A stretch of DNA of 64,000 nt, taken from assembly GCF_055900595.2 (NCBI RefSeq), contig NZ_CM148325.1. One strand, given 5' to 3'. A program made the position numbers. Shown here in pieces: positions 17,301 to 20,300 of this stretch. Each line of letters opens with the position of its first letter. Within the stretch, counting starts at the first letter, position 1.

Positions 17301-20300
17301 GGATCAAACTGATCATTCAGGGCGAACCGGATATGCCGATTGTCAGAGTCGGTGCGCGCTTGCTGTATAACTATCTGGTTAAAGGTGGCGTTCAGGTTTT
17401 TGAGTACCGCCGCCGCCCGCTCCACGGTAAAGTGGCATTGATGGACGATCACTGGGCGACGGTAGGGTCCAGTAATCTCGATCCGCTCAGTTTGTCGCTA
17501 AATCTCGAAGCAAACGTCATCATCCACGATCGTCATTTTAACCAGACGCTACGCGATAATCTGAACGGCATCATCGCCGCCGACTGTCAGCAGGTGGATG
17601 AAACCATGCTGCCCAAACGCACCTGGTGGAACCTGACGAAAAGCGTGCTGGCGTTCCACTTTTTACGCCACTTCCCGGCGCTGGTTGGCTGGCTTCCGGC
17701 GCACACGCCGCGTCTGGCGCAGGTTGACCCGCCCGCTCAGCCGACAATGGAAACTCAGGATCGGATAGAAACTGAAAATACGGGGGTGAAACCCTGATGA
17801 GTAAATCACGCCCGCGCTGGCGCTTAGCAAAGAAGATCCTCACCTGGCTGTTTTTTATCGCAGTGATTGTGTTGCTGGTGATCTACGCCAAAAAGGTAGA
17901 CTGGGAAGAGGTCTGGAAGGTCATCCGCGATTACAATCGCGTTGCGTTGCTCAGTGCGATTGGGCTGGTGGTCGTCAGCTATCTGATATATGGCTGCTAT
18001 GATCTGCTCGCCCGCTTCTACTGCGGTCACAAACTGGCGAAGCGCCAGGTGATGCTGGTGTCGTTTATCTGCTACGCCTTCAACCTGACGCTCAGTACCT
18101 GGGTCGGCGGCATAGGTATGCGCTATCGTTTGTACTCCCGGCTAGGGTTACCGGGCAGCACTATTACGCGGATTTTCTCGCTCAGTATTACCACCAACTG
18201 GCTGGGCTATATTTTGCTGGCCGGGATTATCTTTACCGCAGGCGTGGTGGAGCTGCCGGACCACTGGTATGTCGATCAAACTACGCTGCGTATTCTCGGC
18301 ATTGGCTTACTGCTGATTATCGCGGTTTATTTGTGGTTTTGCGCTTTCGCGAAGCACCGCCATATGACCATCAAAGGGCAAAAGCTGGTGCTGCCTTCAT
18401 GGAAATTCGCCCTCGCCCAGATGCTGATTTCCAGCGTTAACTGGATGGTAATGGGAGCGATTATCTGGCTGTTGCTGGGTCAAAACGTGAACTATTTCTT
18501 TGTACTGGGCGTGTTGCTGGTAAGCAGTATTGCCGGCGTAATTGTGCATATTCCAGCAGGAATTGGGGTGCTGGAAGCAGTGTTTATTGCGCTACTGGCA
18601 GGGGAACATACATCAAAAGGAACGATTATCGCCGCCCTGCTCGCTTACCGTGTTCTGTATTACTTTATCCCACTGCTGCTGGCGCTGATCTGTTACCTGT
18701 TACTGGAAAGCCAGGCGAAGAAGCTACGGGCGAAAAATGAAGCGGCGATGTGAAGTTCAGTTAAGTTCTTTTGGTTTAAGTTCGGGATGCTGTTTATAGA
18801 TGGGGTTCATGATATCGATTAACATGCGCCCCATAATTTCCCCGACGGCGGAACGATAAATATTAAGCTCAGATTCATCGCAAGCTTGCTGAACATATAA
18901 TACTGATGCATCTAATTGAGAACCAATATTGAGCATTAATGCGCTGATATCTGCTGCCAGAGTCTTATCTTTGAACATTTTATAAACCTTTTCAATTTCT
19001 AAACATAAAAGATACTGCATGTTCCATTTTATTACCTACGGGATAATTATCTTTTATTGCATATGTAAAATCACTTGTTTTGATTATTAAGTTTTTTATA
19101 GCATCATCAAGATACTCAGGAACTAATGATTCAATATTTTCAAGATCACAACCAAGATCAATTATCTCTATTAGCTCTTTATCACAATCATTTTTGTGTA
19201 AAAGCCTGGAAATAAAAGGTCTGAAAACTAGTAGTTCAGATTCATCTATAGTTATCGTGCCTTCTTTCAAGGAATGTAACACTCCTGAAAGCAGTATAGC
19301 CATAAATTTATCCATATATTTATTATCGATGGTACAAACTAACTGCATGATATTCTCCACTATTGTATTTCAGATACTACATTTCTAAACGTAAGTCGAA
19401 AGTGCGTTAAATATGAAACCGCGTATGCCTTTGCCAGACAAGTGTTATCGCTATTGCTGCAAGTATCCCAAAGAAGCCGATAAAATAGTAATAGAGTGTT
19501 AATGCACCTGTAAAAGCGCAACGAACCGGACTCCACAACTCTTCGCTATGGCATTTTCCTGCCAGTTCAAGGAGCTTATTTCGTCCATGCGAGATAATGC
19601 CTGACCATAAAAAAATCATTAAGCAACTTATTACCCAAATGGGCCGTTCACTCATTAATGCGGCATTCACGATGATCACCAGGGCCAACCCTGTCAACGT
19701 CATCATAATGATAAAACGATGAGAACCAGGATCAACATTAAATAATAAACCGGCCAGCATACTGATTAAAAACATCGCGCCCGCAGTGCTGAACACAAGG
19801 ATAATGGCAGATACAGGAGCTAAAATAGCAACGACAATCGCCACCAAAGAGATTAAAAACAGATACATTACGCCTGCGATGGCGGCATTTATCTTGTTGA
19901 TATCTTTACTTAAGCCATACATACAAAGTAATAATAATCCTATGACAACATACATTGGTGGTGAATCATATTTGGTTGCCGTAATTTCGAGATAATTAGC
20001 TATCCAGGCCAGTCCTGCGGTTGCCGCCAAACCGACAGCGGTAATGAGCCATATGGCATTTAATATCCTGGCCTCGTACTGAAAATCATTAGTTATGTTT
20101 TTTGATGAGTACGATTTCATTATTTTTATATCCTTAAGTTGAATATCAATATCTATTGCAATTAACGCAAAAAAACTCATCAATTCACGCTACCACACTA
20201 AACCATTAATAAAGTCAAGAACCGTTACAGCAAGTCTAAAAAGGACGCTTAGGATACTGAAATAGAGTGTTATTGCCCCTACAACAATACAGCGAAGAAC

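Follow-up and report, generated by a model that had tools for sequence, protein, structure and literature searches.

A probable islet of orphan immunity genes between ybhN and ybhM in Escherichia, and a candidate toxin partner for the DUF3969 protein family

Polymorphic toxin-immunity systems are defined by an architecture in which one conserved C-terminal domain is carried on varied delivery scaffolds and is followed by a small gene (PMC3482391, PMC3150448). The described systems closest to the locus considered here are the CdiI and RhsI immunity proteins of the contact-dependent inhibition (CDI) and Rhs systems (PMC3150448, PMC3482391), the orphan cdiA-CT/cdiI and rhs-CT/rhsI modules, which keep a C-terminal (CT) toxin fragment with an Rhs or VENN junction (PMC3150448, PMC3967940), and the heterogeneous polyimmunity loci, in which unrelated immunity-type genes are arrayed co-directionally, without a toxin and with strain-variable content (Zhang et al. 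2012, PMC3482391), as in the arrays of SUKH genes, whose products form a described immunity superfamily (PMC3113570). An acidic inhibitor is likewise combined with a small basic toxin in Barstar-barnase and colicin immunity pairs. A stretch of 64,000 nucleotides from contig NZ_CM148325.1 (NCBI RefSeq assembly GCF_055900595.2), the whole of which is referred to below as the window, carries two small minus-strand genes in the AT-rich interval between the convergent genes ybhN and ybhM. One encodes a protein of 118 amino acids (aa) with the Pfam domain of unknown function DUF3969, the other a 73-aa hypothetical protein. The interval is read here, with a probability of roughly 0.72, as a small islet of orphan immunity genes that varies between strains and lies in the old ybhL-ybhN variable locus of Escherichia, the cognate partner of the DUF3969 family being a toxin domain of ~88 aa.

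As is the case for CdiI and RhsI, DUF3969 genes occur immediately 3' of CdiA (VENN), Rhs, PT-TG and PT-HINT toxin domains, share their orientation and in many cases overlap the toxin stop codon, and their products are small, cytoplasmic and acidic and face a basic toxin. Unlike these systems, the window copy has ybhM rather than a toxin gene upstream, DUF3969 shows no sequence or fold match to the solved CdiI/RhsI structures and the toxin domain is not a named family. Orphan CT modules are paralleled by DUF3969 on one enterobacterial contig and in a degenerate relic linked to rhsE in E. coli, whereas the ybhN-ybhM islet keeps no toxin remnant. The acidic-basic pairing, together with a DUF3969 protein that is fused to Barstar, recalls the Barstar-barnase and colicin pairs, although neither shows homology to the DUF3969/toxin pair. 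Polyimmunity loci are matched in that the Escherichia islets mix DUF3969, SUKH-4, 152-aa and 73-aa genes, with strain variability and co-direction both present. They differ in that the window array is very short, with one recognisable immunity gene and the 73-aa gene (SUKH-4 is found only in allelic versions), compared with 'four or more' in extended loci, and in that the islet has no adjacent recombinase and is embedded among BI-1/YccA paralogues, a setting not described for such loci. Across strains, the ybhN-ybhM locus nonetheless appears to behave like a small heterogeneous polyimmunity locus.

The evidence for an immunity role of DUF3969 is drawn from the gene neighbourhoods of the family. 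A scan of 100,044 species, each represented by a single genome, with the back-translated motif GCELED[IV]xxLxP as a degenerate DNA pattern returned 60 loci, 57 of them with a DUF3969 open reading frame (ORF; E<=1e-14 with our own hidden Markov model, HMM) and three attributable to chance, for which approximately four had been estimated. At 29 of these 57 independent loci DUF3969 starts immediately downstream of, and is co-directional with, a conserved C-terminal domain that is read as a toxin domain. The domain is full-length (at least 130 bits, with a gap to DUF3969 of -37 to +63 nt) at 19 of these loci and fragmentary at ten. It is borne on several unrelated scaffolds, namely RHS-repeat proteins (L027, L030, where the protein is 3,126 aa long, and L074), CdiA-type proteins with Fil_haemagg_2 and PT-VENN domains in Proteus cibi (L035:8174-8440, minus strand) and with Fil_haemagg_2 in Pseudomonas (L061), a PT-TG protein (L036), a PT-HINT protein (L069) and filamentous haemagglutinins of Moraxella bovis plasmids. 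DUF3969 is furthermore fused to, or arrayed with, other immunity domains, including CdiI_4, Barstar, pentapeptide and HEAT repeats, with SUKH-4 as a neighbour. Since one C-terminal domain on many different carriers is followed by the DUF3969 gene, DUF3969 is, on the sequence evidence, probably the immunity family for this ~88-aa domain and hence an immunity family of polymorphic toxin systems, which gives a probable role to a Pfam domain of unknown function. Three Xenorhabdus loci (L033, L053 and L057) present the domain on proteins of only 150-171 aa rather than on Rhs or CdiA; these small proteins contain low-complexity repeats (HGYE or PKPPR) and begin with a sequence that resembles a signal or lipoprotein peptide, and the DUF3969 start there overlaps the toxin stop. 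A homologue from outside the islet (P0033, 35% identity) is located on the enterobacterial contig (L013) after a cdiA-CT/cdiI pair, where the gene immediately upstream is an orphan C-terminal fragment of Rhs in which a PxxxxDPxGL-type core end is retained.

Membership of the window protein in this family is supported by a match of the 122-aa maximal ORF to Pfam PF13108 (DUF3969) over residues 14-95 (55.7 bits against a gathering cutoff of 25; E 5.7e-15). When a profile was built from the Escherichia alleles, it retrieved 332 clusters among 1.84 billion representative proteins, mostly stand-alone proteins of ~110 aa which align end to end with the 118-aa window product; in the longer ones DUF3969 is joined to CdiI_4 plus DUF4176, Barstar, pentapeptide repeats or HEAT repeats. 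Mean column identity in the family is 22%, and all of the family-conserved positions (G22, P44, E68, L69 and P77) are present in the window protein. The AlphaFold2 (AF2) model of the latter, built on a 123-sequence alignment, reaches a predicted local distance difference test score (pLDDT) of 94.3 and a predicted template modelling score (pTM) of 0.86, and shows a helical bundle closed by a two-stranded sheet of the N- and C-termini. No significant structural neighbour of this model was found in the PDB, and the PDB sequence search returned noise only, for example a 26-residue match to 9n69_F. Neither DUF3969 nor PF13108 is mentioned in the literature searched, including the main text of the polymorphic-toxin survey PMC3482391. 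One apparent DUF3969-Fic fusion (P0009, on a metagenome scaffold, L010:2334-3226) was rejected as an assembly chimera on account of Ns at the junction and a DUF3969 piece that interrupts the Fic gene; this artefact could mislead surveys of domain architecture.

The partner domain has the consensus IKNVYxSIKxAPKYPxGFKxxQNGTxKxxVNNxxVLxxLRxVESGKWxKVYKDGYDAxGNKVSIHYFQSxSGKVFDVKVKxGWSN and is basic (pI 10.1), facing the acidic DUF3969 (pI 4.7). It has no sequence match in Pfam, NCBIfam or the PDB, and occurs in 227 clusters of a database of 5.8 billion proteins, where none of the best 120 of the 227 bears a functional name, most being labelled 'hypothetical protein'. Its mean column identity is 73% across Firmicutes, Proteobacteria and spirochaetes. 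The toxin domain is consequently far more conserved than its immunity protein (73% vs 22%), the reverse of what is usually expected of toxin-immunity pairs. When the cognate pair of Proteus cibi was fused through a linker and modelled with AF2, pTM was 0.75 despite the disordered 30-residue linker, with both halves at pLDDT 87-97, which hints at a defined toxin-DUF3969 complex in the model. The predicted order of elements in the toxin half (pLDDT 90-94) is short strand and helix, strand, helix and three more strands, and no significant PDB neighbour was found for this fold of a helix and a four-stranded sheet. A nuclease would be compatible with the basic charge and with invariant H, K, R and Y residues, among them R42, K51, Y53, K54 and H67 in alignment numbering, which is a guess at its activity. 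The exposure of a highly conserved putative toxin domain that ranges from Firmicutes to Proteobacteria and is absent from Pfam and NCBIfam is possibly worth more than the islet itself.

Traces of the same pair are encoded elsewhere in E. coli. A near-identical degenerate orphan Rhs-CT adjoining rhsE/ydcD is present in 597 of 5,426 complete E. coli genomes (for example E. coli 120899, L076:6575-7583, and L078), with an in-frame stop in the toxin domain, followed by a DUF3969 gene split into pieces of 33 and 64 aa. The module of the enterobacterial contig had no E. coli match by megablast, and it was a more distant query that reached this rhsE-linked relic. Rhs-CT/DUF3969 pairs are also annotated on small E. 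coli plasmid records. Judged from the relic, E. coli Rhs elements evidently once carried this toxin-immunity pair.

At the ybhN-ybhM locus itself the toxin is missing. The toxin HMM has no match in the 64-kb window at E<=10, and no toxin remnant was found upstream of DUF3969 in any Escherichia islet, even with filters off. An earlier note on this DNA, made from the sequence alone, had compared the two small ORFs with orphan immunity genes and proposed a search for adjacent toxin remnants; that no toxin gene or toxin-CT remnant lies upstream, ybhM being there instead, is the basis for classing the window DUF3969 as an orphan. The suggestion is well supported for the larger ORF, a member of a toxin-linked family with no toxin in the window, and stays a guess for the smaller. 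Toxin-linked members from Xenorhabdus and Proteus share 40-45% identity (E ~1e-24) with the window protein, and the 118-aa DUF3969 protein is most likely encoded by a stand-alone orphan immunity gene. In the proposed mechanism, the ~88-aa toxin domain would be delivered by Rhs, CdiA or other polymorphic-toxin carriers of competitors, and the E. coli DUF3969 protein, like its family cytoplasmic, acidic and mostly helical, would bind and neutralise the incoming domain in a 1:1 complex, as CdiI and RhsI proteins usually do, in a host that does not itself make the toxin. Expression may occur through read-through from ybhM, which is co-directional and directly upstream, its end lying 58 nt from the DUF3969 start.

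Several observations weigh against this interpretation. Approximately half of the 57 loci have no adjacent toxin domain, some being cut by contig ends and others being immunity arrays, and the window copy is only ~35-45% identical to the toxin-linked members, so that its specificity is uncertain. No intact toxin of the ~88-aa family was found by DNA similarity in the 5,426 complete E. coli genomes, only the degenerate relic, and the 73-aa protein has no tie to any toxin. The AF2 model of the fused pair comes without a predicted aligned error, and the contact between the two proteins is thus only predicted. Finally, ~99% of E. coli are without the islet, and any benefit it confers is not general. 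Should the interpretation hold, the islet would provide a compact natural system for the study of orphan-immunity protection against Rhs and CDI toxins, with strains that carry it, including the enteroaggregative reference strain 042, and strains that do not.

The genes and segments of the ybhN-ybhM interval and its surroundings, as positions of the window, are as follows.

17797-18753, plus strand: ybhN, the convergent flank of the small genes (ORF list and annotation).
18754-18771, minus strand: stop codon and final four codons of the 73-aa gene (K-E-L-N-stop), kept by K-12 (junctions of K-12 and seven variant loci).
18757-18978, minus strand: 73-aa gene, pI 4.9, RefSeq coding sequence WP_000471748; the maximal ORF extends to an ATG at 19020.
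18772-19415: AT-rich segment of 644 bp that carries both small genes (blastn of the K-12 locus against the window).
18992-19348, minus strand: DUF3969 gene, 118 aa, pI 4.7, RefSeq coding sequence WP_032302733; the maximal ORF extends to a GTG at 19360.
19407-20120, minus strand: ybhM orthologue of the BI-1/YccA family, 237 aa, 90% aa identity to K-12 YbhM (Pfam Bax1-I, E 4e-19).
20190-20930, minus strand: extra BI-1 paralogue, 246 aa, within an insertion at 20153-20992, RefSeq-annotated (Pfam Bax1-I, E 1.4e-14; blastn and blastp against K-12).
21039-21743, minus strand: ybhL, BI-1/YccA family, the far conserved flank of the variable array, 100% aa identity to K-12 YbhL.

The plus strand thus carries ybhP, clsB and ybhN, and the minus strand ybhL, two more BI-1 genes and the two small ORFs, the stop codon of ybhN being 3 nt from that of the 73-aa gene. 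Both ORFs described in the earlier note, of 122 aa from a GTG (18992-19360) and of 87 aa from an ATG (18757-19020), are present on the ybhM strand and, taken at their maximal length, share 29 nt in different frames. This overlap is not kept when the conserved starts are used. Shorter products are supported by the annotation of a RefSeq strain with 100% identity, E. coli E200086, and by where the N-terminus lies in every allele and in distant homologues, and the likely starts are therefore ATG 19348 (118 aa) and ATG 18978 (73 aa), which makes the genes non-overlapping with a gap of 13 nt; in the RefSeq strain the 118-aa product is labelled 'DUF3969 family protein' and the 73-aa product 'hypothetical protein', likewise with 13 nt between the genes. 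The AT-richness of the interval and the acidic nature of the larger product, both pointed out in that note, are also seen, and the smaller product is acidic too, the GC content being 0.27-0.38 across the small ORFs in 200-nt windows (29% for DUF3969 and 39% for the 73-aa gene, with 52% for ybhN) and the pI values 4.7 and 4.9. Both frames are open in every intact allele at DNA divergences of up to 23%. When other alleles were compared with the window by the Nei-Gojobori method, dN/dS (the ratio of nonsynonymous to synonymous divergence) was 0.27-0.32 for the DUF3969 gene at dS up to 0.92, and 0.19-0.30 for the 73-aa gene at dS 0.38-0.56; between other pairs of DUF3969 alleles dS reaches 1.0, and overall dN/dS is ~0.25 for both genes. 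Because the frames are kept across diverged alleles with low dN/dS, the ORFs are more than chance, and the comparison identifies both as genes evidently under purifying selection.

The segment is absent from K-12, in line with the view of the earlier note that the interval is not coding there: window positions 18772-19415 (644 bp) stand in place of 26 unrelated bp of the K-12 ybhN-ybhM spacer in the blastn comparison. That note had counted the same sequence being present and non-coding in K-12, or unconserved reading frames, against its proposal, and neither was observed. The second insertion relative to K-12 (20153-20992) contributes the 246-aa BI-1 paralogue. Right after the ybhN stop, K-12 keeps an 18-nt remnant that consists of the stop and last four codons of the 73-aa gene and can be taken as the scar of a deletion. 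Of the 5,426 complete E. coli genomes, 30 contain at least 80% of the segment and 39 contain some part of it, always at the same chromosomal locus, and the alleles fall into classes of 98-100%, ~93% and 77-78% DNA identity. The small genes are separated by 13 nt in the window and by 1 nt in one allele, and overlap by 8 nt in another. The gene content of the islet differs between strains.

Window-type strains: 73-aa gene and DUF3969.
88-3493 and FDAARGOS_943: 73-aa gene and DUF3969, with ybhM gone or degraded.
E. coli 042 (L006:2771-3888): 73-aa gene, SUKH-4, a 152-aa gene and DUF3969.
EC42405 (L007:3818-4923): SUKH-4, a 154-aa gene and DUF3969, with no 73-aa gene.
2020CK-00188 (L009): 73-aa gene and three extra BI-1 paralogues, with no DUF3969.
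Other strains: alleles broken by IS1 or IS2 insertions.

The SUKH-4 gene of the allelic islets (E. coli 042, EC42405 and E. albertii) is recognised by Pfam at 27.2 bits, against a threshold of 25.5, and the 152-aa protein has no family match. Alleles of the ~93% class, such as that of E. coli PT62 (L004:3579-3978), have ~340 bp extra between DUF3969 and ybhM, with no match in the window or K-12. Beyond E. coli, E. albertii (L079-L084) carries ybhL, two to three further BI-1-type genes, DUF3969, the 73-aa gene and sometimes SUKH-4, and the Escherichia cryptic-clade genome MOD1-EC7003 (L068:1562-1998) also carries the islet. The E. albertii islet directly adjoins ybhQ, with ybhN, clsB and ybhP missing, and in MOD1-EC7003 only a 66-aa ORF is left at the position expected for ybhN. 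Given the K-12 scar and this distribution across Escherichia, we infer that the islet is an ancient one within the genus which most E. coli, K-12 among them, have since lost, with the 18-nt scar left behind. The ybhM region, usually taken as core genome, is accordingly read here as what erosion has left of a variable islet of immunity-type genes as old as the genus.

The strongest of the competing explanations, which is still unlikely, is that both genes are relic passengers, leftovers of the ancestral islet without a present function in E. coli, kept by drift as AT-rich DNA that H-NS may silence. The small number of complete genomes that retain the segment (30-39 of 5,426), the several alleles disrupted by IS1 or IS2 or missing one gene and the decay of the parallel DUF3969/toxin module by rhsE in 597 genomes would all fit this explanation. 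It would also accommodate a promoter and terminator scan in which no signal rose above shuffled controls, the sole site ahead of the DUF3969 start overlapping its Shine-Dalgarno sequence. Drift is, however, difficult to reconcile with intact frames at dN/dS ~0.25 over dS of up to ~1, with retention of the genes from E. albertii to E. coli and with the presence of every conserved DUF3969 position in the window protein.

Less probable again is a role of the small proteins as accessory factors of the BI-1/YccA proteins, for example as cytoplasmic regulators that work with ybhM-type paralogues. The Escherichia genes do always stand at the end of a co-directional array of one to four BI-1 paralogues, and in 2020CK-00188, which is without DUF3969, the 73-aa gene is kept together with three additional BI-1 genes. 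Against such a role, BI-1 neighbours occur at only two of the 57 DUF3969 loci, both of them in Escherichia, and the pair persists in strains such as 88-3493 where ybhM is gone or degraded. The number of BI-1/YccA copies from ybhL to ybhN varies from one to four between strains, with ybhL and ybhM in K-12, three in the window and four in 2020CK-00188 and E. albertii. These paralogues are only ~25% identical to each other, and their diversification beside immunity-type genes is unexplained. FtsH is needed for import by some CDI toxins and nuclease colicins. A wider proposal, speculative and quite unlikely as it stands, is that the ybhL-ybhN array is an ancestral interbacterial-defence island of Escherichia, with a cytoplasmic layer of orphan immunity proteins, which may comprise DUF3969, SUKH-4 and the 73-aa and 152-aa proteins, and a membrane layer of BI-1/YccA paralogues, which could guard against pore-forming toxins or modulate FtsH. 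Much better supported than this two-layer island is the reading of DUF3969 and the ~88-aa domain as a previously unnamed cross-phylum toxin-immunity family, in which the predicted toxin fold has no solved relative.

The 73-aa protein is confined to narrower limits, its homologues being found only in E. coli, Shigella, E. albertii and E. fergusonii. Searches of Pfam, NCBIfam, PADLOC and PHROGs gave nothing for it beyond sub-threshold noise, and a PDB profile search gave E>=0.58. A relationship to DUF3969 was considered and rejected, the hhalign probability being 0.7%. The gene is absent from the other 55 of the 57 DUF3969 loci, which are those outside Escherichia. As it is small and acidic and lies at the ybhN edge of an immunity-type array, it may tentatively be regarded as a second orphan immunity cassette, which is the best guess for it although less likely than not.

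The proximity of the two genes could alternatively mean that they form a self-contained bicistronic module, such as a toxin-antitoxin pair, whose two small products target one another, as the antitoxin-like genes also envisaged in the earlier note would imply. Co-direction, tight packing (13 nt, or 1 nt and an 8-nt overlap in other alleles) and the small, acidic nature of both products are what such a module would offer. The idea is nevertheless very improbable, in particular as a type II toxin-antitoxin system: no toxin partner is present, neither protein matches a toxin-antitoxin or defence family in Pfam, NCBIfam or PADLOC, and each gene is found without the other, 2020CK-00188 having the 73-aa gene only and EC42405 DUF3969 only, with two genes intervening between them in strain 042. 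Beyond Escherichia, DUF3969 never lies beside the 73-aa gene and follows polymorphic toxins instead. A single frameshifted pseudogene of ~200 aa, of which the two ORFs would be the halves, might account for the 29-nt overlap of the maximal ORFs in different frames and has next to no probability, given that the two-gene layout is kept in alleles of 77-100% identity and in E. albertii, that DUF3969 homologues are stand-alone proteins of ~110 aa matching the 118-aa product from end to end, and that each half is under purifying selection and is also found alone.

Some further features of the region were recorded. Rfam gave no match in 18000-21500. A 14-nt direct repeat (13 of 14 positions identical; 18995-19008 and 19381-19394) flanks the DUF3969 gene, with one copy in its last codons and the other in the spacer past ybhM. 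It is probably a product of chance in AT-rich DNA, as several such pairs are estimated to occur by chance in 2.7 kb of DNA of this kind, and it was left unused, although it could mark a cassette boundary. The flanks of the segment (16000-18771 and 19416-20152) are more diverged from K-12 than is usual for core genes of E. coli, with 95.5% DNA identity over ybhP-clsB-ybhN and 91.7% over ybhM, which suggests that the segment came from a divergent lineage, by inheritance or by recombination. The ybhL side is closer to K-12, at 97.1% DNA identity and with an identical YbhL protein.

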